Shown here piece by piece: positions 29,244 to 58,843 of a stretch of DNA of 64,000 bases; positions within the stretch are counted from its first letter, which is position 1, and the number at the start of each line of letters is the position of its first letter. The stretch lies in IMG/VR virus record IMGVR_UViG_3300043372_000294, positions 1-64,000 of that record. One strand, written 5' to 3'. Under the pieces are notes generated by a model. That model ran no database searches, was not told the origin of the DNA, and saw only the letters and a program-made list of their open reading frames with translations. A program made the translations under genes and the position numbers. Source of the DNA: a virus (taxonomy: Duplodnaviria; Caudoviricetes).

Positions 29244-29247
29244 TTTA

Positions 29248-29784
29248 CTAGATAGAAGATCCTATATCTTCAACAATACAATTGATAGGAGCCTTCAAAA
29301 TCTGGGCAGTAGGACTTGCATCCAGACTAAAGAGCGCAGCCTGAACTTTTAGTGTATGAGTGCCAGCACTAAGGGCTGTTGGGGTTGCGTAAATAAGGGT
29401 AGGGAAGGTGGCTCTTTTTTGAATATTATTATAACACTGTGTCGTGAAGGATGCCGTTCCCGAGCCATCAAGATAGATTGCCAACAAAGTAAGATAATCA
29501 CTTGTCGTATCAGGATTATCAACATAGTTTCCATTAACAGTAATTTTAACAATTCTGCTGGCATCCACAGTAAATGATATAGCGTCCATATTGGTGATAG
29601 ATGTATAAACTAAAGAAGTTGATGAAGTAGAAAAATCGCTAGTAGTTGAAGCCTGAGCCAGAATGCCTCTGGGCGAAACGTCTGCAATATCCTTCAAGTA
29701 CTGCTCATTAAGCATCATAGCATTAAGTCTCTGATAATCAACGGGAACACCCTTGCCCCATTGAACAAATTTAAATTCTGACAT
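29248..29784 (-). CDS. putative minor tail protein
   Basis: Beta-rich, ends VEDIG, follows the tail hub gene. Confidence 0.55.
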   Translation of the reverse strand: MSEFKFVQWGKGVPVDYQRLNAMMLNEQYLKDIADVSPRGILAQASTTSDFSTSSTSLVYTSITNMDAISFTVDASRIVKITVNGNYVDNPDTTSDYLTLLAIYLDGSGTASFTTQCYNNIQKRATFPTLIYATPTALSAGTHTLKVQAALFSLDASPTAQILKAPINCIVEDIGSSI

Positions 29785-29794
29785 TATATTCCTT

Positions 29795-32700: not shown

Positions 32701-35158
32701 GGATGACATTATTTTTGTTATCCAAAAAATTAGTAAAAGCATAAGTTAATGTTTCTTCATGAAACATATCAGCAACACGTTGGGGAACAAAAAATTCATC
32801 AGAAAGTTGAGAATTTAAAGTTGCACCATTAGTTATAGATTTGCTCAAACACTCTCTTTCAGTAGTTGAAAGCGCATAGTTAAATACAGAGAAGTTGGAG
32901 ATGGTGCCATTGAAAATATCATAGTCGGAGACTGCCTTCCCCGCTCCAATCATAAGCATAGGAGTAAGGCCAGTAGATACATCTCTCAGAGGCAGAGAAA
33001 TAATAGCGTCATTAGATGAGACTGGCGACCCATTATTTATATATAACGAAAGAACTCCATTATTTTTTACAATTTGCACATTATATAATGTATTATCAGA
33101 TAAAGTTGCGCTGCTTATCTGCACAGAAGCTCCAGATGTATTTACATATGTTACATAAATTTTATCATCAGTAGTGTTCCAGTAACAATCTATTGATTTA
33201 GTATTAGCTGTATTGCCAATCCAAAATATTCCATTAATACCAGTTGTCGTAGAGTCTTTTTTTACAAGAAAAGAATAAGTAAAATTAGTCAAATCGCTTG
33301 AAATATTTTTAAACTGCTCCCGAGTAGTATTGGGCATATTTGTTGAAGAAAAACAATAGCCAGTTCCGTCAAAAACATGGCCACCCGTAATATAATTAAA
33401 ACCTTTAACTGCCAAGTAATCAATTGCTGCACCATTACTGATGGCGCTAGTATTCCCAGCACCAACATATGTCGCATCTAAAGATTTCAAACTATCATCA
33501 TCACGATATACAGATACAACAATATCGCCCGACCCCGGACTAGTGGCATCGTCTGGTTTGACAGTACCAAGATCATACAATGTAAATGTATTATATTTTG
33601 CTTCAAATCTATAATAATGACTAGTACTAAAACTTCCAGCAACAGAGGTTATAGGATAAGCAGTTCCATCTTTGACAAGACGAATAAATATTGTTCCCCC
33701 ACTAATAGTGGAATACCAAGCTGAAATATAATTATCATCATCAATATATCTAACAACCGCCCCAGATCCAGCATATAAAGTTGAAAACTTAAAATCAACA
33801 TAGTGATCTAGAGAATTAAGATTATAAAGAAGGTAGCCTACTCCAGACCTACTTGAGTCGCACACAGCAGATCCCACTGGAATAGTCCAAATATCTTTTG
33901 CATTACTTATCCTCCAAGAATACATATCATTGGGGCCAAACTGCCCAAGATTAAAATCTCCAGAGCGAGTCGCGGTAATAGTAAATGTATCTTCAATTCT
34001 CTCTGGCTCCAATACTTCTTTAGTTAAAGTGTTGCTAATATTATAAGAAGGAATACTGTAATTAGTATTGAGTAGAGGGTTTGGAGTAACTTCGAAGTCA
34101 TCAAGTCTTCTGTAAGCAACCTCCATCTTCTCAGATCCATAATCAAATACTCTATGGCCACCATTGCGAAGAGAAGTAAAGTCAATAACACCCGTAGATG
34201 CTCCAGTATAAGGAACTGACGTAGAAGCTACTCCGCTATTTGAATCAGCAAAACTTGTATTTAATTGAAATGTATTAGCAGCTTTATTTTGAACATAATA
34301 AACTACGCCTCTAGAATCAGGGGACTCTGTTATATCAGTCAAGGTTCCTGTTGTAGAAAACCAAACTGCAGCCCCGTTCTCCAGCCCATGAGCAATAGAG
34401 TTGATCTGAGTTCTTCGATAATGAAAACTATGTGTACCAGTACCAGTTGTAGTGATATTTACAGCAGAACCACCGGAAGTCGTTGAGACTTGAAAAGTAT
34501 TAGTGGCTTTATTTACAACATAATAATTAGTATCAACAGTAAGAGGTGAAGGTAAAGTTGTAGTAGTTGTAAACCCAATTACATCTCCATTATTTAAACC
34601 ATGAGCACTTTTTGTTATAGTATCCGCACCAGTCTGGACTGAAGTAACAGTCTGAGAGTTTGATTGAACTAAAGATATAGTGACACTAGTATAATAAAAA
34701 CTAAGAACACCCGTCCCCGGAGTTGTAATATCTATGGGAGAGCCACCAGAAGTCGCTGAGACTTGAAAAGTATCTGTAGTTTTGTTTACTACATAATAAG
34801 TGGTGTTTACAGCAAGAGGTTGTGGCAACAGCTTTGTGCTTTTAAATTTAATAACATTACCATTTGATAAACCGTGTGTATTTTTTGTTATAAAATCTGT
34901 GTCAATATTAACAGAAGTAACAGTTTTTGTAACACTGTTAGTGCTGGAAACAGTCAAAGCATCATAGTTAGTTTTATCCATCTTGATATGAACAAGAGGA
35001 CTACGAGAAGAAATTTGTTTCTCATAAGTCATGCTTGGGCTATGAAACTTCAAATTATCGGCATAACGAATATCAGACATCCAAGCTTTAACCTTGGGCA
35101 GAATCCTCTGAGAATCGCTCTCAAGTTCATTCTTAAGATCATCCGAAATTGTTATCAT
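29795..35158 (-). CDS. large minor tail (hub/tip) protein with repeated HGL-x-GD modules and LamG/ConA-like domains
   Basis: Position after tape measure and Dit; LamG-like F.G.I....VFN.ALS; C-terminal PHLELGD.V. Confidence 0.75.
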   Translation of the reverse strand: MITISDDLKNELESDSQRILPKVKAWMSDIRYADNLKFHSPSMTYEKQISSRSPLVHIKMDKTNYDALTVSSTNSVTKTVTSVNIDTDFITKNTHGLSNGNVIKFKSTKLLPQPLAVNTTYYVVNKTTDTFQVSATSGGSPIDITTPGTGVLSFYYTSVTISLVQSNSQTVTSVQTGADTITKSAHGLNNGDVIGFTTTTTLPSPLTVDTNYYVVNKATNTFQVSTTSGGSAVNITTTGTGTHSFHYRRTQINSIAHGLENGAAVWFSTTGTLTDITESPDSRGVVYYVQNKAANTFQLNTSFADSNSGVASTSVPYTGASTGVIDFTSLRNGGHRVFDYGSEKMEVAYRRLDDFEVTPNPLLNTNYSIPSYNISNTLTKEVLEPERIEDTFTITATRSGDFNLGQFGPNDMYSWRISNAKDIWTIPVGSAVCDSSRSGVGYLLYNLNSLDHYVDFKFSTLYAGSGAVVRYIDDDNYISAWYSTISGGTIFIRLVKDGTAYPITSVAGSFSTSHYYRFEAKYNTFTLYDLGTVKPDDATSPGSGDIVVSVYRDDDSLKSLDATYVGAGNTSAISNGAAIDYLAVKGFNYITGGHVFDGTGYCFSSTNMPNTTREQFKNISSDLTNFTYSFLVKKDSTTTGINGIFWIGNTANTKSIDCYWNTTDDKIYVTYVNTSGASVQISSATLSDNTLYNVQIVKNNGVLSLYINNGSPVSSNDAIISLPLRDVSTGLTPMLMIGAGKAVSDYDIFNGTISNFSVFNYALSTTERECLSKSITNGATLNSQLSDEFFVPQRVADMFHEETLTYAFTNFLDNKNNVIQTNGDYYCPESKVSVDTNYGWMSRVQSDISSNFASPDFIEMRFDSLKCNKIFISTGYLSGGVFSANCVITKSDGSTLPSTAYPESSSTLQFADIDGNCFSYLAIDLDDVYNIISIRITPNYTCNAYDYARIFTINPIWEVDLSDHVISFDVSKVRDNYDASLPIGATASNSASVVLDNTDIIFSPYSNSAYSKYVNPDTKFFLYFSHEITKTQNFEDVTVAEEMYADSWSFDDSSMQVTVTFRDYSKYLQEQNIDGYISRGYSAGKSIADILMLSGFPRRKIYFEQKYVDLVFRDKPSVFFYLDALDSSMYSPSLSDFAGFFKDEFGEVLLRTIAPFGDDFGSGLVYSDILSVQDDIKRQVDDLAIKTFEPKYRNGSASFDGILGGPTFYNNVEESQYESLTSSDYWKDLEYSNYTTEFFHYIESPDLMTVDADYEIISFPSIYKVLVRKNSSSQFIYKFQSTISSTVYTITANAVDSVNPHLITVVNSDPLDTGGGYFRLYVDGIKAAGTFGNPSVMMADVGAFLQLKCRSYYDGFKTYVSNFAYYDYVLSDQDILNHHRTSSISIVPNFKYLYAKDSTYWDAMLKIATADLGMFYINEYGDFYYEYRNTLHQSEDNRYQVSQYNFSDNVNIVTGSFVTEVQTNKINVKVNKSSFDASKTEQIWSAETMESLVISKITADISPTSNYIPLSNVDDPVWVPSGYVKIDDEIIKYSAINKKKLVNIERGMFGTTPAWHQSQSRAREVRYYEVEYSASPVSVVNYPAITQEKFEKAVSIDYFISNNFGAEIVVSANDPGVALTSVNNIDYYFKRGTGYSSVIILQGQDPLSGDDNIFEISGVPINTSQSKEVVNTLSADLADNIRRFRLKEITIDNEFIANKNYAQIVADTIIGYFSNPVKIINISCLGVPHLELGDLVTIINFDALGISNEKYWIIENKITYDGGIKQDLVLRQYSESIDNPELKFTTY

Positions 35159-35571
35159 GATTCCTCAAAAGCTACATCAACAGTCCAAATAAATACCCCG
35201 GAAGGAGCATCTCTTTTTATCAAAGACTCCTTATAGTCAGTCACAAAAACTGTGAACTCCTCATATTTGCCATTTTGATAAAAAAATCTTAAAGTGTGGG
35301 AATCAGAACTATCCCCAAACAATTTTACCATAGTATCACGGGCAGCGTATCCATCAATAGTGCAAGTGCTATCATCCGGCAAATAATCCCATTTTGTAGA
35401 AAAAGTATGCTTAACAGACTTGACATACTTCTTTCTAGTGCCATTTGCCAGATCAATAGTAACAGATCTTTCATCACGCGATCGATCAACAGCCGAACGC
35501 CCCTGATCAGTTAACTGAACATTATCAATCCAAATAGCTGCCGGATAAAAGAGTGTATTCCCTGATGTCAT
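35155..35571 (-). CDS. distal-tail-like minor tail protein
   Basis: Position after tape measure; LANG..K.YV...K..F...W..LP; ends FEES. Confidence 0.65.
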   Translation of the reverse strand: MTSGNTLFYPAAIWIDNVQLTDQGRSAVDRSRDERSVTIDLANGTRKKYVKSVKHTFSTKWDYLPDDSTCTIDGYAARDTMVKLFGDSSDSHTLRFFYQNGKYEEFTVFVTDYKESLIKRDAPSGVFIWTVDVAFEES

Positions 35572-46400: not shown

Positions 46401-47111
46401 TCACGAATCATAACCGAGGGCTTTTACGACCTCGGTAGGGACGAACATTCCGCCCCAAAAGCTTTCAGATTCGGCACTCTTGGCGAGAACCTCATCCTCC
46501 GCAAAACCATCGGCCTCTATGTCAGCCGACTTCTTCCCTGCACCTGAATTTGCAACCTTCTCAAGTTCACCCGAAAGCTCATCAGCAGCATCCTTAGCCT
46601 CAGAAACGGACTTTTCGATAGCATCGATCTTCCCGTCAACTTCGGCTGTGATATCGGCCTTGACCTTCTCAAGCTTCTCATCAAGAAGAGCGCCCAGTCC
46701 TTCAAGAACTTTCTCGAAATCCATTTCTTCTTCTCCTTCTGTTACAGACAGTTCAATGTCTGTCTGACTATCTACTGACTTAATCGTGACTTCCTCAAGA
46801 GCGAACTCCCCCGGACCCTGACCAGTCAGAGAACTATCGCCACTGACAGTTTCAGCGCGCGTTGCATTGGTGATATCTGCCTTCGGCGTAGTGCTTCCGA
46901 CAGACTCCTCAAGCATTCCTCCGCCAACATTGATAGTTACTCTAGGAGCATTATCCATGTTGCCTTCAGAAACAATTTTAAGGTTGTGATTCATACTAAC
47001 AACATCAACAACCTGACCCTTTTCAACAGAAGAATCTTTCCCAAACAGGAAAGATCCAAGCTTTGACAAAATATTTTGTTTTTGAGTATCTGTAAAATCT
47101 TCGTTGGCCAT
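46401..47111 (-). CDS. predicted nested in-frame scaffolding protein
   Basis: Internal TTGCAT-17-TAATAT promoter with an in-frame ATG 7 nt downstream. Confidence 0.55.
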   Translation of the reverse strand: MANEDFTDTQKQNILSKLGSFLFGKDSSVEKGQVVDVVSMNHNLKIVSEGNMDNAPRVTINVGGGMLEESVGSTTPKADITNATRAETVSGDSSLTGQGPGEFALEEVTIKSVDSQTDIELSVTEGEEEMDFEKVLEGLGALLDEKLEKVKADITAEVDGKIDAIEKSVSEAKDAADELSGELEKVANSGAGKKSADIEADGFAEDEVLAKSAESESFWGGMFVPTEVVKALGYDS

Positions 47112-49049
47112 ATCACTCATATTATCATAATTTTTATTCATATGCAAATCACCTTCTTTTTCATTTTTAGAAACCATTGACTCCTCCATAGTGTCGGGTG
47201 TTTCGTAAATATCATCAGTAACTATTGCTGCTGCCTCGGAAACAGTTCTGCGAAGAACCTGAATCACAATCTCCTGAGTAGGTGTAGGTTCAGGCATGAT
47301 CTTGCTCATACGGTCTTCAGGTTTAATACCCTGTTGTGGCTTCTTAATACCACCACCGCCAGAGCCAATTTCTCCAGTCCCAATGGCTTTGCAATAAACG
47401 CAGTAAGAGTCTTTCATCATGACTCCTTCGCCATTGCAATATTCACAATCAGCACCATCAGACATCTTTCCCTCGCCGTCACATTCCGGGCAGGACATAT
47501 CTTTCATCAAATACTCTGTATCATCACAATACTTGCACATATAATCATTTTTATTCATTTCTTCTGCGCTTTCATTTGAATCAAAATAAACTTTTTTAGA
47601 ACTAGAAGACTTTGGATGATCAGAGTCCAGAAGGTCATAGTCAGTTATATACTTACTATTTTCTGGTCTACCAGTGCGAGAAAGGTATAGGAAAGCATTA
47701 ACGCGAGCAATTGCCCACTGATTACGATTCATTCCGGGGCGATGCGAAGTAGAAAAAGCCCCCGCTCCGCGACGGTAAACTGCTTTCAATTGCCCAAGAG
47801 TCACCCGAGTCCACTCAGGGCGACCTTCCATTTTATCATTGTGCTCTTTAGCCTTATTTCGCAAAGCCTGCTCCGTAGCAGCAGAGACTGTAATGCCACC
47901 AGTTCTGCCAGATGCAGATCCGGGTTCATTAGCATCAGAACCACGAATCTGCTCAGAAGGAGCAGCAGGAGCTTTGCTTATCTCAGATATAATTTGGCTC
48001 GGGCCATCAACACTCATGCCTTCGACATCTGTTCCGACACCTTTATCCATAGCTTTAATTCTATTAGTAATAGCGCGCGCCCAAGTTTGGCCGGGATCTC
48101 CGCCCCACAAAGCCCAAGCAATTCTTCCAGCGCTAGGATAGCCATCGCCGGGAGTGAATCCCTTTCCTTGTTTATCAACCTCATGACGGGAAAAGAACGA
48201 GTGCATTCTTCGAACAGTTGAAATGCTCAGAGTATCTTTATTCATAATGTCTCTAGCTCTAGCTACACCGACAGGAGTTCCGCCACGATTGAATTCTTTT
48301 CTCCACTCAAGACCGCGCTTGGCCTCTGCTGCCATAGCGTCTGTCGGGACAGTATTGATATCAGAAAGAGCTTTCTCAAAAGAATCATTAATAGTCTCAA
48401 TGAATTTATTAATCAGAATTTTGTCGTATTCTTCGGAGCGCCCAATGATAATCATTTCTTCAGAACATACTGCACAAGTGCTATCGCCACCGACAGCAGC
48501 ATATCTATCATCTTCGCAGTAGAAGACATCCTGAACACTCTCAGCGACATATTCAAGCTGACCATCAACACTTTTGATCATTGCAAACATCCCTGCAGGA
48601 TTGCAAGGATTATCAACAACACTTAATTCTCCAAGAGTATATTGCGTAATCTCATTGATCTGTCTATTCAGCTTTTCAGAAAGTTTTTTCTTACTATCTT
48701 TAACATAACCACCAATAGAGAAGCCGCGCAAAGTTCCATCAAGAATCTTCTGCCAAGTGCTTTCTGCACCCTTAGAAATATAAACCGAAACCTCAATGCC
48801 TTGATAAGTTTCGCCCTCATGCTGAACAGGAACTTTCTTCCAATCAACAAGTTTACCAACCGCAACAGGAGAATGCATCTCCCTAATATTTCCCACCCAA
48901 TTAGAAAAAGCCTCAACGGAGGCATCAAAATTGACAACATCATCTACAAGATCGGGGTTATCAGCGGTAGCAATACCAGTGACAATCCTCTGCTCCTGAT
49001 TGATCTTCTGAAATGGGAAAGTGAAGTTAAGTCCAGATTGCATAAACAA
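46401..49049 (-). CDS. multidomain prohead protease-scaffold protein
   Basis: N-terminal HK97-type protease (REMH...GK, GFSIGG, ELSVVDNP.N), extra domains, acidic coiled-coil C terminus. Confidence 0.85.
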   Translation of the reverse strand: MFMQSGLNFTFPFQKINQEQRIVTGIATADNPDLVDDVVNFDASVEAFSNWVGNIREMHSPVAVGKLVDWKKVPVQHEGETYQGIEVSVYISKGAESTWQKILDGTLRGFSIGGYVKDSKKKLSEKLNRQINEITQYTLGELSVVDNPCNPAGMFAMIKSVDGQLEYVAESVQDVFYCEDDRYAAVGGDSTCAVCSEEMIIIGRSEEYDKILINKFIETINDSFEKALSDINTVPTDAMAAEAKRGLEWRKEFNRGGTPVGVARARDIMNKDTLSISTVRRMHSFFSRHEVDKQGKGFTPGDGYPSAGRIAWALWGGDPGQTWARAITNRIKAMDKGVGTDVEGMSVDGPSQIISEISKAPAAPSEQIRGSDANEPGSASGRTGGITVSAATEQALRNKAKEHNDKMEGRPEWTRVTLGQLKAVYRRGAGAFSTSHRPGMNRNQWAIARVNAFLYLSRTGRPENSKYITDYDLLDSDHPKSSSSKKVYFDSNESAEEMNKNDYMCKYCDDTEYLMKDMSCPECDGEGKMSDGADCEYCNGEGVMMKDSYCVYCKAIGTGEIGSGGGGIKKPQQGIKPEDRMSKIMPEPTPTQEIVIQVLRRTVSEAAAIVTDDIYETPDTMEESMVSKNEKEGDLHMNKNYDNMSDMANEDFTDTQKQNILSKLGSFLFGKDSSVEKGQVVDVVSMNHNLKIVSEGNMDNAPRVTINVGGGMLEESVGSTTPKADITNATRAETVSGDSSLTGQGPGEFALEEVTIKSVDSQTDIELSVTEGEEEMDFEKVLEGLGALLDEKLEKVKADITAEVDGKIDAIEKSVSEAKDAADELSGELEKVANSGAGKKSADIEADGFAEDEVLAKSAESESFWGGMFVPTEVVKALGYDS
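47119..47147 (-). promoter_or_regulatory. internal sigmaA promoter inside the protease gene
   Basis: TTGCAT ATGAATAAAAATTATGA TAATAT. Confidence 0.65.
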
Positions 49050-49095: not shown

Positions 49096-49863
49096 TTATC
49101 TAACTCTTAATAAATACCAACCATTTATAGTCGCTGTTGCAGTAGCGCTTGCAGTACCCATTTGCACAGTAAAGTCTATATATGTAGTTCCAGACATATC
49201 AGTAGCTGAAGAGCCATACCCAACTTGCGTTTGAGCGACAGTAATAGCATTCCATGTTGCACCACCAGCACCATTGTAAAGCATACCTGAAGCTAATTGA
49301 GAAGGAGAAGATGGACCAATTGCTGCAACATTTAAATCTACCTCAATCCTCCAAGGTCTATTATTAGCGGAAACGCCTATAGATATAGCTCCAGTAGCTA
49401 TGACTGCAGCCGTAGAAGACGTAGACCCAATTTTGTATCTCCATGTATATGTAGTAGCTGCTGCAGCATTACTTAATAATGTTCCATAAGCAACTAGTTT
49501 ATACAAATCTTGATTTTGAGCACCAGTGAAGTTTGTAGAAAGCAAAGCAGTTTCTGTCGTTGAATTAGATACAGTTGAGCTAGAACTTGATGAAGACAGG
49601 CGAATTGTTCCAGCCGGTCCAATAAGCGAAACTCCACCACCCCATGCCCCGGATGCTTTTGGGCCATAAATACGGGAAGCAGTTGTATCAATGTAAAAAT
49701 CACCATTGACTCCAAGGCCAGAAGATGGAACGCCAGACCCGTTAAGGATTGTCTTGCCATCGATACCATTAGTGCCATTAGTTCCTGTAGCACCTGTTGG
49801 ACCTTGAGCACCAATAGCAGTCTCAACCCAAGCAGAGCCATCCCAAATCTTAAGAACAGTCAT
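49096..49863 (-). CDS. short collagen-like fibre protein
   Basis: N-terminal LKIWDGSAW, GxY triplets, GDFYIDT...YGPK..G.W, beta-rich C terminus. Confidence 0.7.
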   Translation of the reverse strand: MTVLKIWDGSAWVETAIGAQGPTGATGTNGTNGIDGKTILNGSGVPSSGLGVNGDFYIDTTASRIYGPKASGAWGGGVSLIGPAGTIRLSSSSSSSTVSNSTTETALLSTNFTGAQNQDLYKLVAYGTLLSNAAAATTYTWRYKIGSTSSTAAVIATGAISIGVSANNRPWRIEVDLNVAAIGPSSPSQLASGMLYNGAGGATWNAITVAQTQVGYGSSATDMSGTTYIDFTVQMGTASATATATINGWYLLRVR

Positions 49864-50417
49864 ATTTTACTCCTATATAAATTAGGATCAATAGTAGATG
49901 CAGCAATTTCTGGATCAATAGGCCATTTATTATCTAATAATAAATTGAAAGTATTTAATGTATTATTAATTAAATCAGAATAATTTACAATAGAAAGATT
50001 GACATCACTACGCTCCGCTAAATCTTCTTCAATTTGGGTTCTAAAATTTATAAATGACTGTCCTATCAAACCACCAAAAGAGCTAGAATAAGAAAGTTGT
50101 ATTTCATCTATAGATCTACTAGTTAAAACAATAGTCCATTCGCCATCTGGAAGATCAGTTAAATTATATACAGACATTTTTAAAATATTATTGTCTGGGA
50201 CAATATCAATCCACTCAGATGCTGGGCGGGTGAGATAATTGTGAGCATAATAATCAGTATTAGGATTTGGATTATATCCAACGGAGTCAACTTCGCGACT
50301 TCTAATAACTGACTCAAGTTCCTGATTATACCAAATAGGCATTTGAGATGCTAAAGCAAGAGCATGAATTAAAGCAGTAGTTCCAGTTCTATTAAGCCCA
50401 CCAATAATATATTTCAC
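49860..50417 (-). CDS. sulfotransferase-family protein
   Basis: N-terminal IIGGLNRTGTTAL (PAPS-binding P-loop), NP...YY, R...I..S, Y.DL. Confidence 0.6.
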   Translation of the reverse strand: MKYIIGGLNRTGTTALIHALALASQMPIWYNQELESVIRSREVDSVGYNPNPNTDYYAHNYLTRPASEWIDIVPDNNILKMSVYNLTDLPDGEWTIVLTSRSIDEIQLSYSSSFGGLIGQSFINFRTQIEEDLAERSDVNLSIVNYSDLINNTLNTFNLLLDNKWPIDPEIAASTIDPNLYRSKI

Positions 50418-51094
50418 TATTTCACCGCCAAAAGCGTAGAAGCTGGATAATAAATAAGAGTTCCGCTAGTAGTAGCAGTTCTACTCCCAGTAGCGCCAGA
50501 AGCTATGAGGTTTTCAGTAGTCATAAGTGTATTTGTATAAAAATTATGAACAGGACTATAAATATTTATGTTAGATCTTTCTGTCATAGATGCAGGTTTA
50601 ATTAAAATATCTGAAGTGGCGCTCCAATTCCACCAACAACCAACTAGTATATCTGAAGAAGTAGTTGTGGTAATTGAGTTCGCTGTCAGAGAACCGGCAA
50701 CGGGAGCGCCAACTACATCTATTGCTGTCCCCCCAGATATTGCCATTATTGACATTGCCCCAGAATACCAATTGACACCGGGCCAAGTAAGTGATGTCTC
50801 AGAACCTGTTGCAGTTTTTGTAAAAATAAGCCTTTCATAATAATCTCCACTAAAATTAGAAAAACCATACTGAGCAATCCATCCTGAAGGGGGATTATAG
50901 TAATTATATGTAGTACTTCCAGTTTTTGCATCAATATCAAGATTAACTTGCATAATAAGAATATCACCTGCAGCGAAACCAGCAGGCATAGCACAAGTCA
51001 TACTAGAAGTAGTTGTTGAAGCAGTAGCAACAGATCTGAATTGTGGACCCGCAGCAGCAGTAATACGACTAGAAGCAGTTATTCCAAGAATCAT
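50417..51094 (-). CDS. putative fibre-tip adhesin
   Basis: MILGITASS N terminus, P.G..AGD.L, P.GW; Ser/Thr-rich. Confidence 0.55.
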   Translation of the reverse strand: MILGITASSRITAAAGPQFRSVATASTTTSSMTCAMPAGFAAGDILIMQVNLDIDAKTGSTTYNYYNPPSGWIAQYGFSNFSGDYYERLIFTKTATGSETSLTWPGVNWYSGAMSIMAISGGTAIDVVGAPVAGSLTANSITTTTSSDILVGCWWNWSATSDILIKPASMTERSNINIYSPVHNFYTNTLMTTENLIASGATGSRTATTSGTLIYYPASTLLAVK

Positions 51095-51660
51095 GTTAAA
51101 TCACCAACCAAAACCCATGTATTAGTAGCTCTCTTAATAAGTGTAGCAGAAGACCACTGCGCTCTCAAAATCAAACTTGGAGTAGCATTAATAGTTACCC
51201 CGCCAGCAGGAGCGATAGTTACAGATCCAGTACCAGTTGCCAAAAGATTAATTTGAGTCCCAATAGCAAAAGCAACAGATGCATTTGTCGGAACAGTTAT
51301 TGTAGCAGCAGCAGAAACTTCAATCAAAGTTTGTTCATCTGTCAATGCCAAAGTATAATTGGCAGATTTAATAGAAGTATTCAATCTATATGGTGCAAAA
51401 AGTGAACCAGTAGAACTTGTATCAGCCCAAACTACAGAAGTATCGGACGGGGCTGTTGACTGAATTACTATCCCCGCTGGACCTTGCGGGCCAATCATAC
51501 CAACTGAAGCTTCGCTAGCAATAGCAGAAGGACTCACAGAAATATTCTGCAAACCTCTATTGACAGTAACATTAGGGCCAGCAGCAGTTGGAGTGACACT
51601 AACAGTCGTATCAGTACCACTTACAGTAATTTCATTAGTGGTCTGATTAACCTCAGTCAT
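51091..51660 (-). CDS. short fibre protein with C-terminal GDL domain
   Basis: GPQGP, APSDTSVVWADT, YTL...D...F.IG.QI...LR.QWS.ATL.K...W.LVGDL. Confidence 0.7.
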   Translation of the reverse strand: MTEVNQTTNEITVSGTDTTVSVTPTAAGPNVTVNRGLQNISVSPSAIASEASVGMIGPQGPAGIVIQSTAPSDTSVVWADTSSTGSLFAPYRLNTSIKSANYTLALTDEQTLIEVSAAATITVPTNASVAFAIGTQINLLATGTGSVTIAPAGGVTINATPSLILRAQWSSATLIKRATNTWVLVGDLT

Positions 51661-52337
51661 TAGTAGGTAATCTCCTGCCTAACTTCAAATAACCCGCGAA
51701 TAATTTTGATGGTATCTCCAGCAGTTCCTACGCCGGGAGAAGTACCAAGAGTTACTTCAAGATCATAATCATAAATACCAGCGGCAACAGCGGCCATAGT
51801 TGTAGAGGGAATTTTGATATCAATAATGCCCGTCGAAGGAGTTAAGTCAAGAGTTGATGTAAAGAGACTATGACCTGTTCCCGCAGATCCTGAGGTAGTA
51901 ATACCTGAACCATTTAAAGTAGAAGTTACGTTAAATGTGGTTGCAGTTAAATAGATTACATAATAAGAAGTTCCGGCAGTTAATCCGGTTGGCAGTGTTC
52001 CAGTGGTTGTGAACTTCACAACATCGTTAAGCAAAAGATTGTGGGCAGAAGGCGTAGTAAAAACTCCCGGAGCAGCAATAGTTACAGTCACAGTAGAAGC
52101 GAAAACTGAAGGATCTGACGTACCAATAGATATAACAGGTGCATCTCTGTAAGCAGCAGCCTTAAGTCGCTCTGGATAAGACTTTCGAACCTTCATAGAA
52201 GCAGTAGCGCCAGTGCCAAGATTAATCGCAGTCCCAGCCGAATTCTTGTAGACAATTTGACGGATAAAGGTTGTACCTTGATCCGCCACAATATTATAAA
52301 TGCCAACATCAGAAACATCATTAACAATCGTCGTCAT
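51660..52337 (-). CDS. fibre adaptor (BppU-like) with an inserted HGL/GD module
   Basis: QG.TF...INL.G..A.M.VR...G.I...YDLE...G.F.V..EIT. Confidence 0.6.
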   Translation of the reverse strand: MTTIVNDVSDVGIYNIVADQGTTFIRQIVYKNSAGTAINLGTGATASMKVRKSYPERLKAAAYRDAPVISIGTSDPSVFASTVTVTIAAPGVFTTPSAHNLLLNDVVKFTTTGTLPTGLTAGTSYYVIYLTATTFNVTSTLNGSGITTSGSAGTGHSLFTSTLDLTPSTGIIDIKIPSTTMAAVAAGIYDYDLEVTLGTSPGVGTAGDTIKIIRGLFEVRQEITY

Positions 52338-52391
52338 TTTTCCTCCAAATATATAACCATTTTATCATCATATTAACTTAAAGGCATAAAG

Positions 52392-52823
52392 TTATGCAAT
52401 TAAATCTCCAACTAAAATATAAATATTAGATCCAGTACAAACTAATGTTGCCCCAGAGTACTGAGTCCTAAACTTCTTCCCCGAAGAAGAGTTTACAGTC
52501 GCTGTCCCAGCAATAGTTACTTGCCCCAATCCAGTTTGGATCATATCAATTCTTTGTCCAACAGTAATGCCAATACCTATATTTACGTTTAGCGTCATCG
52601 CTACAGAACTGTTATTTAGCAAAAGTACTTTGCCATTATCTCCCGAATTAATAGAGTAAGAGTTTGCTGTGATTGTAGGAGTAGATACTGCCTGAGCAGT
52701 TGCCCAGTCTCCAGTGCTACCTTGAGGGCCCTGTGGCCCCTGTGGCCCCTGTGGACCTTGTTTTCCTACTACAATGACTTCCCATTGGCTTGTTGCTGGA
52801 TTCCAGCTTTTGATTGTACTCAT
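52392..52823 (-). CDS. short collagen fibre protein with C-terminal GDL domain
   Basis: IKSWNPATSQW, (GPQ)n, ends LVGDLIA. Confidence 0.7.
   Translation of the reverse strand: MSTIKSWNPATSQWEVIVVGKQGPQGPQGPQGPQGSTGDWATAQAVSTPTITANSYSINSGDNGKVLLLNNSSVAMTLNVNIGIGITVGQRIDMIQTGLGQVTIAGTATVNSSSGKKFRTQYSGATLVCTGSNIYILVGDLIA
52727..52760. repeat. 9-bp tandem repeat (collagen GPQ)
   Basis: (ccctgtggc)n. Confidence 0.85.
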
Positions 52824-52853
52824 TATCTTTTCTGCACTGTTCTATTCATAAAA

Positions 52854-55800
52854 TCAACCAATCTGAGTGAACATAAAGCTTGATCCCGCTTTTATTCTTG
52901 TTTCATCGCTACCTGATGCTAAGTTTCTTCCAAAAGCCAAATTCAAGATAGGTACAGAAGCGCCACTAGTAAACGAACCTTTTATTATTATGACATTGGG
53001 GGTTCCAAGGGACTTCACACCCATAGATAAAGCATTTGTGCCTGTTATTACATCACTAGTAAAAGCCGCCCCGCTGGTGTCTATCCCGCTTGCATACCAA
53101 GACAAGTCTGAGATGTTATTAACATTGAATTTTAATTTTATGTCCGCAGCGGAATTCCCTGTTACATACAAAGTCCCCTCAAATATATATTTTGCATTCT
53201 GTTTTCCGTTATCAAATGTAGCGGCAACGACATACGCTGAACCTGTAGAGGCCGTAGATACATCCCCATTGAAAAGGTATGGGGTCTGTTTGATGACGGT
53301 TTGATAGTTGGGACCTAGGGCAGGATTTTTGTTAAATGATGTAATACCCCCTACTGCTATCTCCACACTCGTATCTTCTATCTTGACCACTTCATTATCA
53401 CAAATCCCGTCAAACAAAATGTCTTGCAAGCTACAAGGGCCTCTTTCAAGACTGGCATGATACCGCTGCGTTTTAAAAGTGCATGACCCTGACGCGCTAG
53501 GGAATGCTACAAGGCGGGAAGTATCGGAAGGGTTTTTTGCGGAATATTCTGCATCCGCAATGGAACCTGCTGCTCGGAAAGTGGTAGGGCTGTTAGCAAG
53601 TTCTCCCCACCAATAGCTATTTGCTGGAGCGGCTCCATCCTTATTGGGTTCAGGGGTTATGCCCCAGTCGGCCCAATACACTTTTTGACGAGTGGTGGGG
53701 ACAACGGCATAATAATCAATACCAGTAGAAAGGCCTGTAGGGAGAGGCCCTGTAACAGTCCAAGACGAATATGTTCCAGCACCGGCACCGGAATAGGCAC
53801 TGCCTGTTATGACACCAGTAGTAGAATTGTAAGAGCTGACCAAAATATTTATGTAGTTGGTGGAATCATACGAGACAGTTATTGTCTGGGATGGTGTGCA
53901 AAAGAAAGGAGTTGCAACAGTGAAAGACTTCTCACCAAAAGAAATCTCTAGTGAACTAGAGGAAGTGGTTTCATTACTAAAACGTATTCTAGCCCCTGTT
54001 GTCAACAGGTGCTTATTACTGCCATTTATAACTTTAGCATTTACAAGATGAGTACTTGCCGTCGTATCAAACTTCCCTCGAATGACAGTAAGAGTAGTTC
54101 CTGATACTGCAGTTACTAACATTATTTCTAAATCAACCAGCAGAAGTGATCCAGCCGCTATACCTGTAGCAGAGGTAACTGTAATCGAAGTAGCACCAGT
54201 ACTGGTTATTGCAGCACTGAGGTTAGTACCACTACCAACGACATAAGGCTCCTCATCTGTATTAGCTACTACTGAACTTGAGGTAATATCATAAGATCCG
54301 TTAAAAGTGGCAATACCGCTTAGAGCATGAGTGTTTCCGATATGGCCTTGGTTAAGGGAGACATTGTTGATAGCGCCCTGATTTGAGTAGGGCTGGATAG
54401 TTCCCGAAAGCGTGCTGGCACTCGTATAAGAAATTGCAACACCGTTTATGGCGTCAATATACGTTGCAGCTAACTTCAAGTTGGGGGAAGAGTCTATTGC
54501 AAAATAGTATGTGCTATTTGAAAACGGAGGATCAAGTGGGTGGCGATTATTATTAGAGTCATCCACAATAGCAGGAGAAGTAATCTTTACGCGTGTGCCG
54601 GTGACAATAGTATTAGTTCCGGGAACAGGAATTGTCGTAGTATTAGTCCCAGTAAACTGCACAGTTACAGCTGTTGTTGAATTCGGGCTAGTCGCTTTAG
54701 AATAGCCGGTGCTTATATCAAAATCACATTCTCTGATCGAAGGTTTGCCATATGATCCATTGACAAATCTAACACCGCTAAAAAACACCCCGCGATTTCC
54801 CGCCACGGTAAGAGTGGTTCCCCCTCTCATAGCAGGCGAAGGTACATAACTATACCCATCAAACTTTAAGAACTGTTGTCCAATTGCTTCCTGAGGATTA
54901 TGCAGCATGGACTGTGAGAAATAACTATTCCTTGAATAAAGCGAGTTTGCTGTAGGATCAGGTTGAAGCCAAATATTGTCACCAAATGGATATATAGAAA
55001 AGAAGTTTTTGAAATGCATATTGTTGGTATCGTCAGCAACAACTGTGTCCGACATATCAAACTGGGGATACGAACTCCCATCCCCACTTGCAAACAAATA
55101 CACAAAATCAATTACCGCCTCCCGAATGCTCTGGTTCAACTTCAAAGCAGTACGAGCAAAATGATGGATACGAACATTACGCAGCAAGAACCTATTCTGG
55201 TACTGATACTCAAGCCCCCCAATATCAATCATCCTTCCTCGTCCATCTAGGAAGAGATTTTCTATGAACGAACCGTCAACATGGTTGCTTTGGATGTAGG
55301 AGGTGTCTGTTGGACCTCTTTTTACGGTTATGAACTGATTAGCAATAGTGCCGTTTACATGGTAGGCGGCAGTGACTCCGGAAACCGTAGTCTCTATGGG
55401 AGCAAGGCGGGTCAAGTTTTGACCGGCACCCGTAATATGCATAGGAAAATTGTAAGAGAATGGTTGACACTTGTAAAAGCCTTTTGGCAGTACGAGGGTA
55501 TCTCCTCTGGTTAGCTCAGGCGTTTGGCCTGAAATATAAACAGTGCCGTTATTATTCAACACCCCAAAAGCCCTCTTTATGGCAGGGGTGATATCCGTAA
55601 CAGAAGCATATGTTGGATCAAACACGCCAACCGCAATGTTGTCCTGAAACTCTCGGATATCAACAGCATTCTTATACTGTCGATCTGTCCAGCCAGTGTC
55701 GTAGTCGCTGTTTGAAATTTTTGATAAAATTTGCCCTTTCAGCCCGCCTGTTGGAAAAATTGTAGCATTACCCGGATCATCCGTATCAACCCAAAGTAAA

Positions 55801-56018
55801 TTTGTAGAAGACGGAGCCTCATTTTGAAATACAACATTGCTCGGTCCTGCCGCTCCCTGTGGTCCCTGTGGTCCCTGTGGTCCCTGTGGTCCAACAGGAC
55901 CAGAATTGCTAGAACCTACAGCAATAATAGTATTATCTGCTGACTGAACTAATGTAATATTATTATCTTCTTTTAATATAATATTATTATTTTCTCTTAA
56001 AATAATAGACTGGTTCAT
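52854..56018 (-). CDS. large fibre/tailspike with pectate-lyase-like beta-helix (putative depolymerase)
   Basis: Collagen, APSSTNLLWVDT, GG.KGQIL.K, D.TPAI..A...G..L.LPKG.Y, beta-helix-like strands. Confidence 0.72.
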   Translation of the reverse strand: MNQSIILRENNNIILKEDNNITLVQSADNTIIAVGSSNSGPVGPQGPQGPQGPQGAAGPSNVVFQNEAPSSTNLLWVDTDDPGNATIFPTGGLKGQILSKISNSDYDTGWTDRQYKNAVDIREFQDNIAVGVFDPTYASVTDITPAIKRAFGVLNNNGTVYISGQTPELTRGDTLVLPKGFYKCQPFSYNFPMHITGAGQNLTRLAPIETTVSGVTAAYHVNGTIANQFITVKRGPTDTSYIQSNHVDGSFIENLFLDGRGRMIDIGGLEYQYQNRFLLRNVRIHHFARTALKLNQSIREAVIDFVYLFASGDGSSYPQFDMSDTVVADDTNNMHFKNFFSIYPFGDNIWLQPDPTANSLYSRNSYFSQSMLHNPQEAIGQQFLKFDGYSYVPSPAMRGGTTLTVAGNRGVFFSGVRFVNGSYGKPSIRECDFDISTGYSKATSPNSTTAVTVQFTGTNTTTIPVPGTNTIVTGTRVKITSPAIVDDSNNNRHPLDPPFSNSTYYFAIDSSPNLKLAATYIDAINGVAISYTSASTLSGTIQPYSNQGAINNVSLNQGHIGNTHALSGIATFNGSYDITSSSVVANTDEEPYVVGSGTNLSAAITSTGATSITVTSATGIAAGSLLLVDLEIMLVTAVSGTTLTVIRGKFDTTASTHLVNAKVINGSNKHLLTTGARIRFSNETTSSSSLEISFGEKSFTVATPFFCTPSQTITVSYDSTNYINILVSSYNSTTGVITGSAYSGAGAGTYSSWTVTGPLPTGLSTGIDYYAVVPTTRQKVYWADWGITPEPNKDGAAPANSYWWGELANSPTTFRAAGSIADAEYSAKNPSDTSRLVAFPSASGSCTFKTQRYHASLERGPCSLQDILFDGICDNEVVKIEDTSVEIAVGGITSFNKNPALGPNYQTVIKQTPYLFNGDVSTASTGSAYVVAATFDNGKQNAKYIFEGTLYVTGNSAADIKLKFNVNNISDLSWYASGIDTSGAAFTSDVITGTNALSMGVKSLGTPNVIIIKGSFTSGASVPILNLAFGRNLASGSDETRIKAGSSFMFTQIG
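55854..55892. repeat. 9-bp tandem repeat (collagen GPQ)
   Basis: (tccctgtgg)x4. Confidence 0.85.
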
Positions 56019-56353
56019 CTAGTAATATCCTTCTCAATATAGGCAGGGCCGGTGAGAAGCGTAGTCACAACAGATCCATTGACTTCTTGTAAATCCCAAA
56101 CTGCATTAGCAGGAGAAAGAGCAGCAGTAGTAGTAGCTGATAGCGTACAAGCAAAAATGCCGTTAGCAGCATTGACGATTGCACAACTAAAAGTAGCAAG
56201 AGGAGCAGAAGAACTAGCCTTAGCTCTGACCTGCGCTGAGTAAGTTCTACCCGTAATGTTAATCGGAGTGCCAGTAGAATTTTGACGAGTCACAGTAACT
56301 GTCTCAGTATCGCCAATCTTAATATTTAATGGATAATTTGTAGGCTTACTCAT
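56015..56353 (-). CDS. fibre adaptor (BppU-like), without insertion
   Basis: GDT...G.PIN.TG....QVR...G...LS...T..L...WDL...G......DITR. Confidence 0.6.
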   Translation of the reverse strand: MSKPTNYPLNIKIGDTETVTVTRQNSTGTPINITGRTYSAQVRAKASSSAPLATFSCAIVNAANGIFACTLSATTTAALSPANAVWDLQEVNGSVVTTLLTGPAYIEKDITR

Positions 56354-56362
56354 CTCTCTCCT

Positions 56363-56875
56363 TTATTCAAAGAAAACACTTCCACTAACAGCACCAGCAG
56401 AAACGTCAATATAAATACCTGTATTGAATGGGATCTGCCCCCATGCAATTGATTGGTTCTCAGTTAATCCAAGATGGATGTGGAAAACAACAATTGGACC
56501 TCTGTAAACAGTATGGACACCAGAACCTGCGCTAGTAGTATTAATAGCTGCACTGCCCTTATTAAAGGAAAGTTGGAATGTATTAATGTCCACATATTTT
56601 ACATAATAAACGGTATTGACTGCAAGACCAGCAGGAAGTGAACCAGTAGAACTGAAGATAACAGTGTCGCCTTCAACGAAACCATGACCATTCGCTGTAA
56701 CTACAGCAGGGGCAGCATTTGAAATAGTGCAAGTGCCTACAGATGCACCATAAGCACTAAGGCCATCAATGATATTTATAATTGTCCCATCAAGACCGCC
56801 AGCGACATAGTAGCCGTTCATAACTACTCTGCCATTAACTACTAGACCATCACCTACAAAAGTTTTATATTGCAT
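56363..56875 (-). CDS. virion decoration-like protein with an inserted HGF/GD module
   Basis: Paralog of 56879..57142 plus an ~80-aa insert. Confidence 0.6.
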   Translation of the reverse strand: MQYKTFVGDGLVVNGRVVMNGYYVAGGLDGTIINIIDGLSAYGASVGTCTISNAAPAVVTANGHGFVEGDTVIFSSTGSLPAGLAVNTVYYVKYVDINTFQLSFNKGSAAINTTSAGSGVHTVYRGPIVVFHIHLGLTENQSIAWGQIPFNTGIYIDVSAGAVSGSVFFE

Positions 56876-56878
56876 ATT

Positions 56879-57142
56879 TTACTCCCAAAAAATACTGCCA
56901 GTAGCAGTGCCAGAAACAACTTCCACAAAAATTCCTTCATTAAAAGGAACTCCTTTGAAAGAGTCATAAAGAGCAGTGCTAGTAGTTGCCACTGCAATTC
57001 TGAACACAGGATTTCCCGCACCAGTTGCATTATCATGAATATGAACTACAGCAGTCGCTGTTGCTCTAATTGAAAAACCATGAATAATTGCAGGACTAGA
57101 GACAATAATAGTATTTCCGGTATTAAATGTTGTATATTGCAT
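56879..57142 (-). CDS. small virion decoration-like protein
   Basis: MQY.TF...D...G...PFN.GI.V.V..G...GS.F.E; directly after portal. Confidence 0.6.
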   Translation of the reverse strand: MQYTTFNTGNTIIVSSPAIIHGFSIRATATAVVHIHDNATGAGNPVFRIAVATTSTALYDSFKGVPFNEGIFVEVVSGTATGSIFWE

Positions 57143-57154
57143 TTTTAATTCTCC

Positions 57155-58843
57155 TTAAACTGGCGGATTGGAATCTTGCTTAGATCCTCTTTCCGCTCTT
57201 CCTGTAGTTGCATCTGCCGGTGACGATTCTCCAGCAGCACTATCTTGACTACCCTTTGGCGGACTTCCCGCTGCTGAATTAGAGTTCCCAACCGGAGCGC
57301 CCTCAGCCTTCGGCGTCTGTTCCCCGCCAACCATAACCTGACCCATATCAAAGCGATTCTTCTCTTGAGCAATCTTGGTGGGATAAGGAAGAACAATGTC
57401 TCCCTCTTCAAGCGCAGTAAGTCCAACCTTAAGGCGAACCTCATTAGGAGTCATAACTTCAGTACGAAGATAACGATCCCAAATTCTAGAACGAAGATCT
57501 TCATCAATAACATCGATCTCATCAAACTTGAAAACTTTTTTGTCAGAAAACTCTTGAACAATACGATTGATTTTTTTTTCAAGGATTTTCTGATCCGGTC
57601 CTACAACCTGATTTTTAAACGTCTTATCTGCATCTCTAGATACGGCAAGATTAGCATTGTCATAAATGCCAATCTTAGGAGCAGGCACTCTATTCGCAAC
57701 AGTGATCTCATCGCGATTAGCTTTGCGATATTTATCAAAAGAACTATCTTGAACTGTATTCTCAAGTTTTTCAAACTTAATATCTACATCACGGCCAAGA
57801 GTGGCAGGAAGAGGGATGAAAAGAGTTCCGTGATTATTTCCTTTAATTTCATTCTTAAAATAATTGACAATTTCAGTTTTTGATTTTTGAGAAAGATTTG
57901 CACCTTTAAGAATAATTGCATAACGAGGAATGCTTTTATTTTCAAAATAATCAATGTTATATTCTTTAGCAAACTTATCGCCAATAATAGCACTAAGCGC
58001 ACCTACCGCAGAAGGAATACCATAGTAAGTATTAGTTGGTGAATACTGTCTAAAGTGAATAATTTCATTAGGATTTGGATCACTGCCAATTGGATCTTTA
58101 GTATCCATATCTTGAAAATTTCTAAAGAAAATAAAACGAGCAGCAGAGCGTTGAACGAAACCATCTCTTGCTCTTCTAATTCTAATATGAGTCGCTGGGA
58201 TATGTCCTACATAACCAATTGTGCCATTTCTATTTCGGCCAATTTCAAGATATCCATTGCCAATAGTAAGATAGTCAACCCAAACTTTAATAAGTACTTC
58301 AATAAAACTTTCGTCAATATTGAAGGCATCAAAAAGTTCGTTCAAACGATCTTCTTCTCTTTGAAGTTCATCACGAAGTCTTGCTAACGTATCGCTATTC
58401 TTTCCGGATGCTTTCTCAACTCTTTTACGACTTTTGGAAGTGTCTTCCCATCGATATCCAAGAGCAACAGTATTCATAGTCCTAGCAAGAATACTTGCAT
58501 TATGAGTAGCGCTTTCTTCATAAAGAGAAGCAAGAATTTCTAGATTATAGGGAGGTTGAACAAGATCAAACATCCCATAACCATTAACAACTTCTGGATC
58601 GACATACTTAGATCCAGTCCCGCTTTTGCCAGAGTTATATTGCGGAGCACTATATTTTTTATTAATTTTACTTAATTGATTTTTAATCTTTCGACTTTGA
58701 AAAGCAGGATCAATCGGTTTACTAAAAATATCTTTATCTTCAGTAATTATTTTTGAAATATTTCCAGTATAAGAACTAGTTACATCATCAATTTCGATAA
58801 TATCATTTCTTTCTTCAACCAATGAAGCGGCAATTCTTCTCAT
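57155..58843 (-). CDS. portal protein
   Basis: PPY.L..L, GNGYLE, E.IH...YSP...YYG.P, YF.N...P, TPNEVR...GL. Confidence 0.92.
   Translation of the reverse strand: MRRIAASLVEERNDIIEIDDVTSSYTGNISKIITEDKDIFSKPIDPAFQSRKIKNQLSKINKKYSAPQYNSGKSGTGSKYVDPEVVNGYGMFDLVQPPYNLEILASLYEESATHNASILARTMNTVALGYRWEDTSKSRKRVEKASGKNSDTLARLRDELQREEDRLNELFDAFNIDESFIEVLIKVWVDYLTIGNGYLEIGRNRNGTIGYVGHIPATHIRIRRARDGFVQRSAARFIFFRNFQDMDTKDPIGSDPNPNEIIHFRQYSPTNTYYGIPSAVGALSAIIGDKFAKEYNIDYFENKSIPRYAIILKGANLSQKSKTEIVNYFKNEIKGNNHGTLFIPLPATLGRDVDIKFEKLENTVQDSSFDKYRKANRDEITVANRVPAPKIGIYDNANLAVSRDADKTFKNQVVGPDQKILEKKINRIVQEFSDKKVFKFDEIDVIDEDLRSRIWDRYLRTEVMTPNEVRLKVGLTALEEGDIVLPYPTKIAQEKNRFDMGQVMVGGEQTPKAEGAPVGNSNSAAGSPPKGSQDSAAGESSPADATTGRAERGSKQDSNPPV

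Follow-up and report, generated by a model that had tools for sequence, protein, structure and literature searches.

Two candidate sets of collagen-like lateral fibres, with a motif split between genes, in the portal-protease interval of an uncultivated phage

Background

The stretch of DNA considered here (the window) comprises 64,000 nucleotides, positions 1 to 64,000 of the IMG/VR virus record IMGVR_UViG_3300043372_000294 (Duplodnaviria; Caudoviricetes), and is part of a 96.7-kb phage contig with its structural genes all on the minus strand. Between the genes for the portal and the prohead protease lie two cassettes of collagen-like fibre genes, in which the primary fibre displays the first half of a short motif (the socket) and the last gene begins with the second half (the plug). 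Why should a small motif be divided in this way, and what does the division imply for the assembly and the position of the encoded fibres? The explanation preferred here is that the 8-kb insert encodes two lateral-fibre sets of a siphovirus, docked through a split knot and mounted on a collar of T5 type; taken as a whole, we give it about an even chance.

Socket and plug motifs in the two cassettes

The ten open reading frames (ORFs) that a first-pass annotation had listed between positions 49096 and 57142 were all re-found at the same coordinates, on the minus strand; eight of them make up the two parallel cassettes, running from an adaptor and a fibre to a last gene. The motif-bearing genes and their parts are as follows (aa, amino acids; G-X-Y, collagen triplet).

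52854-56018, minus strand: fib1054, putative primary fibre 1, with about 940 aa of distal domains after leader, short collagen, socket and GG module
55902-56018, minus strand: beta-strand leader of fib1054, aa 1-39, as read from the sequence
55845-55901, minus strand: collagen of fib1054, six G-X-Y, aa 40-58
55776-55835, minus strand: socket 1, VVFQNEAPSSTNLLWVDTDD, fib1054 aa 62-81, conserved in alignment A4
55689-55748, minus strand: GG..GQ.L.K.S..DYD..W module of fib1054 (GG module), at fixed spacing after socket 1
52392-52823, minus strand: plug143, putative secondary fibre 1, with plug hairpin (52776-52823), collagen (52704-52766) and C-terminal knob
51091-51660, minus strand: fib189, putative primary fibre 2, with leader (aa 1-53), three collagen triplets, socket 2 and knob
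51472-51501, minus strand: collagen of fib189, three G-X-Y, aa 54-63
51418-51471, minus strand: socket 2, IVIQSTAPSDTSVVWADT, fib189 aa 64-81
49096-49863, minus strand: plug255, putative secondary fibre 2, with plug hairpin (49822-49863), collagen (49750-49812), complete knot (49636-49755) and C-terminal part

The N-termini of plug143 and plug255 were MSTIKSWNPATSQWEV and MTVLKIWDGSAWVE, respectively, each leading directly into six to seven G-X-Y triplets, which confirmed that the last gene of each cassette begins with the second half-motif followed by collagen. Uninterrupted collagen repeats (PF01391) amounted to six triplets in fib1054, three in fib189 and six to seven in both plug143 and plug255; because these runs are short, Pfam collagen scores stayed under the gathering score (E-values 0.0018 and 0.09). 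When the 96.7-kb genome was scanned throughout in six frames, the socket and plug motifs were absent from every other real gene. Pfam held no model for socket, plug or knot, and DUF2510, considered for the plug, was discarded as a weak match under any threshold (E 0.03).

Leader, collagen and first half-motif were displayed by both primary fibres, as the annotation had described. Its statement that only the first half is present stayed uncertain for fib1054, where the conserved GG module follows socket 1. In the AlphaFold2 (AF2) model of fib189, socket 2 formed strands at aa 65-67 and 78-80 with a predicted local distance difference test (pLDDT) of about 70, and there was no closing hairpin between socket and knob.

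Gene order across IMG/VR

A DNA pattern for the plug N-terminus matched more than 118 stretches of IMG/VR, where about 10 would be expected by chance according to our estimate. At least 88 of the matches were true ORF starts (78 unique among the matches listed, to which the plug-gene counts of this paragraph refer), and most ran on into collagen. For 39 of these 78 plug genes, representing 30 plug-protein clusters, the next gene upstream, on the plug gene's strand, carried a socket without the closing hairpin. In 14 of the 39 the socket formed the extreme C-terminus and stop and start codons overlapped, as in L097, where ...GIWIDT is followed by the stop, an overlapping ATG and then MSILKRWNGSSWV; since the socket is the last element before the stop, the domain is cut exactly at the gene boundary in these 14 cases. 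A socket was never found in the downstream neighbour (0/66). Considering only plug genes with enough flanking sequence, sockets occurred within 3 kb upstream in 36 of 49 cases and within 5 kb in 27 of 32, and downstream in 0 of 34 and 0 of 17, respectively.

The reciprocal, socket-side sample agreed with this polarity. A socket-only gene preceded 20 of 32 plug-starting ORFs as compared with 83 of 2234 other ORFs (odds ratio 43, Fisher p 3e-20), the loci being phylogenetically related, so that p-values overstate independence and set only an upper bound to the significance. A plug gene followed none of the 14 contiguous-motif genes in the socket-ascertained loci and two of the nine in the plug-ascertained loci. 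Among 125 collagen-type ORFs picked regardless of motif, no plug and at most one convincing socket were encountered; the motifs are therefore not generic to collagen genes, a control that could not address conditional association within collagen fibres.

Across genomes, the two halves clearly did not occur independently of each other: plugs followed socket-only genes and never preceded them. Such polarity, combined with boundary-exact splits, is hard to explain without a functional link. Given the co-occurrence survey, the 14 boundary-exact cuts and the contiguous genes mostly lacking a following plug, the motif behaves as a domain split across two genes, as had been proposed, and comparative genomics argues strongly for this reading, which may be called well supported, if unproven.

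Some proteins, in L083, L088, L130, L166 and L181, displayed an N-terminal plug and, beyond their collagen, a socket as well; head-to-tail concatenation of such chains would be conceivable.

Close relatives

Sockets and plug genes were both present in the window phage, L004 and L155; in L005, L009 and L011 the primary fibres had no socket, and plug genes were absent. L004, whose portal is 80% identical, displayed the same architecture; the first 33 aa of its last gene were 82% conserved with respect to plug255 while the remainder was a different domain. In L155 the order fib189, adh225, sulf185, plug and protease was kept (the accessory proteins adh225 and sulf185 are described below), with a third distal part. 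L256 displayed, in the same order, an adaptor, a socket fibre, an accessory gene, a plug gene and the protease, and in L005 a knob of the plug143 type was fused directly to the primary fibre. The triplet of adaptor, socket fibre and plug gene was found in at least 15 further contigs. According to this pattern, the plug acts like a conserved handle to which different tips are attached, and it is confined to phages that also have a socket.

The same comparison bears on the possibility that plug143 and plug255 are non-virion assembly chaperones encoded downstream of fibre genes, like tail fibre assembly proteins. Their position right after fibre genes and the translational coupling were the sole points in its favour. 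Both proteins carry collagen triple-helix repeats, many fibre proteins have the knob as their last domain, and the distal parts vary between relatives as receptor-binding domains do, which makes a chaperone role highly improbable.

Split and contiguous knots

Phage contigs, both related and unrelated, also contained the motif in contiguous form, as with TAPSSPVVGDIWYKTDVGTTLIYYDSSWIEI and PANPFEGQVIYETDTNNIRFWSGSAWES in L026. The complete knot of plug255 itself, GDFYIDTTASRIYGPKASGAW, is of a sister type that alternated with collagen in 118 of 120 plug255 homologues, with one to three copies each. In its AF2 model this knot reached a pLDDT of 96 and displayed the strand order socket then plug; the model was unusable past residue 95, pLDDT falling below 50 in the C-terminal part. 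Contiguous knots of bacterial and phage collagen-like proteins (G.G.P....G..GDFYIDT....IYGPK..G.W) share the socket-then-plug strand order with the split joint but are uninterrupted. The GDFYIDT type did occur with collagen on both flanks, while no contiguous knot of the AP..LW.DT type with collagen on both sides was found in our loci.

Counted by hand on printed examples, the distance from DT to the hairpin was three to five residues across the gene boundary as against four to five in contiguous copies. By this count, and in agreement with the strand order of the AF2 knot, the cut appears to fall in the loop that joins strands two and three of the contiguous domain. Plug loop lengths (W[DN]G..W versus N..TS.W) did not sort by eye with socket subtype, and no specificity code was evident. 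A contiguous-motif protein retrieved only collagen peptides or noise from PDB sequences, and no solved structure was found by sequence.

The first-pass annotation had called the domain Mtd-N-like, which was not borne out. The hidden Markov model of Pfam Mtd_N (PF18454) did not match the knot (49624-49764), either socket or the plug at E-values up to 10 (the control P0126 scored 42.3 bits), and similarity in fold to Mtd (1yu0_A, residues 7-49) was weak, with a Z score of 2.4 and a root-mean-square deviation (rmsd) of 2.6 A over 42 residues. The resemblance to the N-terminal Mtd domain of Bordetella phage BPP-1 resides in the strand-loop-strand-hairpin sequence pattern.

A second type of gene-boundary joint was observed in distant relatives from the same phage group (L026:11350-13697, L037:18606-20636, L070:11930-13598 and L081:18302-19991). 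In these four loci a small protein of its own, ending in ...DGGN[FY], forms the leader, the next fibre starts with MANTIRIKRR (genuine Mtd_N type) and ends in ...DGGTF, and the protein that follows starts with MANTIKIK.

Proposed assembly and independent caps

In the explanation preferred here, an adaptor with an immunoglobulin (Ig)-like fold would open each set and form a ring at the tail tip, by analogy with p132 of T5 and LtfC of DT57C. This ring would hold the strand-rich leader of fib1054 or fib189 by beta-sheet augmentation. The primary fibre would continue with a short collagen stalk and then with strands one and two of a small knot that elsewhere is a contiguous collagen cap; plug143 and plug255 would contribute at their N-terminus only the missing hairpin, followed by collagen, and their trimers would most likely dock by supplying it. 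Gene order would then reflect assembly order. The outcome would be two-headed fibres, branching at a mid-chain socket, the first set with a large distal domain and a small knob and the second with a knob and a variable distal domain; the plug would serve as the conserved handle, the parts after it being those swapped between relatives.

Several points, besides the relatedness of the loci, weigh against this explanation. We infer the docking interface, the branching and any combinatorial pairing, and about half of the plug genes had no socket in the immediately adjacent gene. Both sockets of the window are located mid-chain and the chain continues beyond them, which poses a steric problem for a co-axial plug trimer. 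Sockets were also found with collagen on either side in one and the same chain (L221 and L256) and plug hairpins in tandem (L097 and L178), so that each half may be stable alone. The hairpin-like GG module may complete socket 1 in cis. It forms with this socket one unit of about 50 aa with fixed spacing and 11 invariant columns (alignment of 19 sequences), and elsewhere it is widespread, also standing alone behind collagen or a plug. A socket-plus-GG profile had a single PDB match (E 1.9e-4), to the Legionella Lcl C-terminal construct 8q4e at residues 17-37; by our own mapping these lie in the N-terminus (Glu252-Val270) that is reported to be disordered in the crystal (PMC11162425), so that the match says nothing, structurally, about completion in cis. 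As to the complete knot, the best match to its modelled fold was the trimerisation domain of collagen XV/XVIII (3n3f and 9bnb; Z 4.4-4.5 over 49-52 residues), a weak but whole-domain similarity that would fit a trimerising cap as well as a joint.

Much of this would suit a different arrangement, in which each half is a trimerisation cap in its own right, the socket closing the C-terminal end of a collagen segment and the plug hairpin nucleating the N-terminal end of another, a role for which the trimerising foldon of T4 fibritin offers an analogy. Secondary fibres would then attach by other means, such as the adaptor ring, a knob resembling gp10 or the GG module, and the gene order would be a conserved operon of primary then secondary fibre. 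Consistent with it are the tandem hairpin repeats, collagen-socket-collagen within single chains, the conserved unit of socket and GG module in fibres of the fib1054 type, the collagen XV/XVIII match, the fold that the knobs share with T4 gp10 and TSP4 (docking platforms elsewhere) and the plug255 hairpin (aa 3-7 and 12-16), which folded alone in the AF2 model with a pLDDT of 83. Independent caps leave unexplained the 14 boundary-exact cuts with, by the hand count on examples, the spacing of a contiguous loop, the lack of plug genes after the 14 socket-ascertained contiguous motifs and the consistent absence of sockets downstream of plug genes. Moreover, as the 14-residue hairpin is the sole non-collagen element at the N-terminus of secondary fibres, a role in attachment is hard to place elsewhere. 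We regard independent caps as doubtful, yet as an alternative of real weight.

Adaptors and position on the virion

Each cassette opens with an adaptor gene:

56015-56353, minus strand: ad112, Ig-like adaptor, PHROG 1084 at E 3e-25, p132/LtfC homologue by profile
51660-52337, minus strand: ad225, adaptor of the ad112 family carrying an insert of about 100 aa, PHROG 1084 matched over two stretches

A family profile built from 24 sequences (A1) matched LtfC of DT57C, annotated as 'L-shaped tail fiber assembly' (8hqz_Q), at E 3.8e-9 and p132 of T5 (7qg9_R) at E 1.5e-6. Its best match was 26dk_M (E 2e-9), a 197-aa 'Structural protein' with an insertion placed as in ad225. Matches to PHROG 3304 and 15373 ('L-shaped tail fiber protein assembly') were obtained at 9e-5 and 3e-4, and a single adaptor sequence matched p132/LtfC at E 0.021. 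Judged by these profile comparisons, both adaptors are homologues of the T5 p132/DT57C LtfC collar protein, which has one Ig-like domain of some 110-140 aa. In both cassettes, and in at least 15 other contigs, the adaptor adjoins a fibre gene with an N-terminal leader of short strands.

The collar of T5 and DT57C is a dodecamer that encircles a decoration-less, tube-like ring (p140/TTMP) at the tail tip, and into this collar the N-terminal 40-50 or so residues of the lateral fibres thread, donating in DT57C strands to its sheets (PMC10038345, PMC10713586). A comparable role for the fib1054 leader is suggested by analogy with the LtfA N-terminus of DT57C (PMC10713586). Fibres of DT57C are branched, LtfB being attached through LtfA (PMC4728585, PMC10713586), and the T5-type collar has been called a landmark of the T5-like family only (PMC10038345).

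Fibre genes were not found at their usual place after the tail tip. The tail module (27553-35571) ends after a 138-aa gene and a 1787-aa minor tail (tip) protein, followed by an HNH endonuclease and an exonuclease. The 138-aa gene (35155-35571), located after the tape measure gene, had no PDB sequence match and matched only PHROG 1194, of unknown function. Because of the adaptor homology to p132/LtfC, the recurring triplet and the lack of fibre genes behind the tail tip, the fibres are placed, on homology, at a tail-tip collar, which appears likelier than the head. A homologue of the T5 partner-ring protein p140 was not found, which counts against this placement.

The first-pass annotation had favoured head or collar fibres over tail fibres. 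This was not supported by the adaptor profile, which matches the tail-tip collar proteins, or by the gene order, which mirrors ltfC-ltfA-ltfB. Head or neck fibres, attached to the capsid or the portal vertex, would agree with the location of the cassettes between portal and protease genes, and among head genes in distant relatives. They would also agree with the fold of the fib189 knob (aa 94-189, pLDDT 87-98 in the AF2 model), the closest match of which was the C-terminal knob of capsid spike gp52 of Pa223 (Z 14.0, rmsd 1.9 A over 94 residues; bioRxiv 10.1101/2025.06.11.659172), a counter-hint to the tail-tip placement from a predicted model. The adaptors are homologous to the collar that anchors lateral tail fibres (PMC10038345), and the tail module is without other fibre genes. 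The knob fold, moreover, is found in tail proteins as well: aa 93-189 of fib189 matched TSP4 of CBA120 (7rfo_B, residues 80-178) with Z 9.2 and T4 gp9 and gp10 with Z 8.1 (1qex_A, residues 66-165) and Z 7.9 (5iv5_AC), and the knob also resembles a baseplate protein of Klebsiella phage KP1 (matches in the Z 8-10 range). According to the model, it adopts the beta-sandwich fold of the gp10/gp9/TSP4 XD domains, with a terminal knob as best match. In T5, too, the fibre and collar genes are apart from the other tail genes, so that gene position is weak evidence for a head or neck location. Such a location therefore seems unlikely.

The knobs of plug143 and fib189 are of one family (PHROG 18179/8780/21978). 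No Pfam or PDB sequence match beyond collagen was found for fib1054, and its N-terminus retrieved only collagen peptides or noise from PDB sequences. A full-length search of PDB sequences gave nothing to back the impression of a depolymerase resembling pectate lyases.

Other genes of the insert and genome context

Further features of the locus are the following.

57155-58843, minus strand: portal
56363-57142, minus strand: p87 and p170, two paralogues with shared termini, directly after the portal gene
50417-51094, minus strand: adh225, accessory protein, predicted lectin-like beta-sandwich
49860-50417, minus strand: sulf185, sulfotransferase-like accessory protein
46401-49049, minus strand: prohead protease, 882 aa
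45302-46384, minus strand: major capsid protein

Both accessory proteins, adh225 and sulf185, are co-translated within cassette 2. Neither Pfam nor PHROG gave a match for adh225; its structural neighbours in the ESM Atlas were LamG, PKD and WxL surface proteins (template modelling score 0.8), and the lectin-like fold predicted from them is a lead only. The same applies to the weak sulfotransferase likeness of sulf185, which matched Pfam Sulfotransfer_3 below the cut-off (E 0.046) and neighboured ESM Atlas clusters partly annotated with Sulfotransfer_1/3. Overlaps of stop and start by one or four nucleotides were found between ad112 and fib1054 and at every junction of cassette 2, indicating translational coupling; a 30-nucleotide spacer is located upstream of plug143.

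Although inside the range of the first-pass annotation, p87 and p170 need not belong to the fibre system. p170 corresponds to p87 with an inserted module, and their conserved C-terminus (G[IV]Y[VI].V.SG...GS[IV]F[WF]E) was found in one or two copies at the same place in relatives. An inserted module of about 80 aa with the signature TG.LP.GL....YYV is displayed by p170 (56600-56647), ad225 (51957-52004) and fib1054 (53706-53753), and twice by the 1787-aa tail protein (29795-35158); p87 and ad112 are paralogues without the insert that adjoin the inserted copies. The prohead protease displays a cluster resembling a DnaJ-type zinc finger at aa 505-553 (47391-47537, minus strand), CKYC..CPECDGEG..CEYCNGEG..CVYC, and a long acidic C-terminal extension.

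The gene order of the window (glycosyltransferase, ribonucleotide reductase, a small gene, portal, protease and major capsid protein) matches that of Stanwilliamsviridae phages of Streptomyces, whose portals are 40-45% identical to that of the window. Their portal-protease interval contains one gene of about 150 aa, as against some 8 kb in the window phage. The host is probably an actinobacterium.

Relation to known systems and significance

The closest parallel is with the lateral fibres of T5 and DT57C, with which the window shares a homologous adaptor, adjacent genes for adaptor, primary and secondary fibre and a strand-rich leader in the primary fibre. DT57C fibres are branched, as is proposed for those of the window. 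T5-like fibres display neither collagen nor a split knot, and LtfB docks through a region resembling gp14/gp15 of phiEco32, unlike the joint proposed for the window. The window phage, moreover, carries two adaptor paralogues and two cassettes, and its probable actinobacterial host differs from those of the T5-like system.

Primary fibres that bear a secondary fibre by a short conserved N-terminal handle, as proposed here, are also found in CBA120 TSP4, G7C gp66/gp63.1 and K1-type podophages. The TSP4/gp10/gp9 fold (Z 7.9-9.2) is common to the fib189 and plug143 knobs and to branched receptor-binding systems. In gp10-like systems the docking partners are both folded, an N-terminal domain and a branching domain, whereas here one small domain would be completed by the strands of two proteins. 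To our knowledge, known branched-fibre joints are folded domains docking on folded domains.

In chaperone-usher pili the beta fold of one subunit is incomplete and receives the missing part from the N-terminal extension of the subunit that follows, giving ordered polymers. The principle is alike, but these systems are not homologous: the pilin is Ig-like, a single strand is donated, the subunits are monomers, and chaperone and usher are needed. Trimerisation domains adjoining collagen helices, such as those of multiplexin collagens XV/XVIII and the T4 fibritin foldon, are likewise small beta-rich units; the collagen XV/XVIII domains have no sequence similarity to the knot, their Z scores are in the range of a common arrangement, and they are not split between proteins.

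No published description of a split knot joint was found in the literature, coverage of which was incomplete. The joint proposed between primary and secondary fibre differs in kind from that of DT57C and would represent a new type of connector in multi-protein branched fibres. In its general form, the proposal would amount to a snap-joint grammar for viral collagen fibres, in which a split trimerising knot chains and branches proteins in gene order, a T5-type collar here mounting two two-headed fibres; we hold this wider statement tentatively, at a little short of even.

Multi-protein, branched receptor-binding fibres decide the host range of phages. If the proposal is true, about 14 residues at the start of a gene would provide a sequence rule for predicting partners among the fibre proteins of uncultivated phages. 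It would also explain the swapping of tips between relatives, exemplified by the window, L004 and L155, where one handle bears three different tips, since host-binding tips would be exchangeable by replacing a single gene with its 14-residue handle; the same compact handle could serve for attaching new tips in laboratory phage work. Finally, the link to p132/LtfC extends the T5-type collar to a large group of phages from fresh water that are related to those of Streptomyces.

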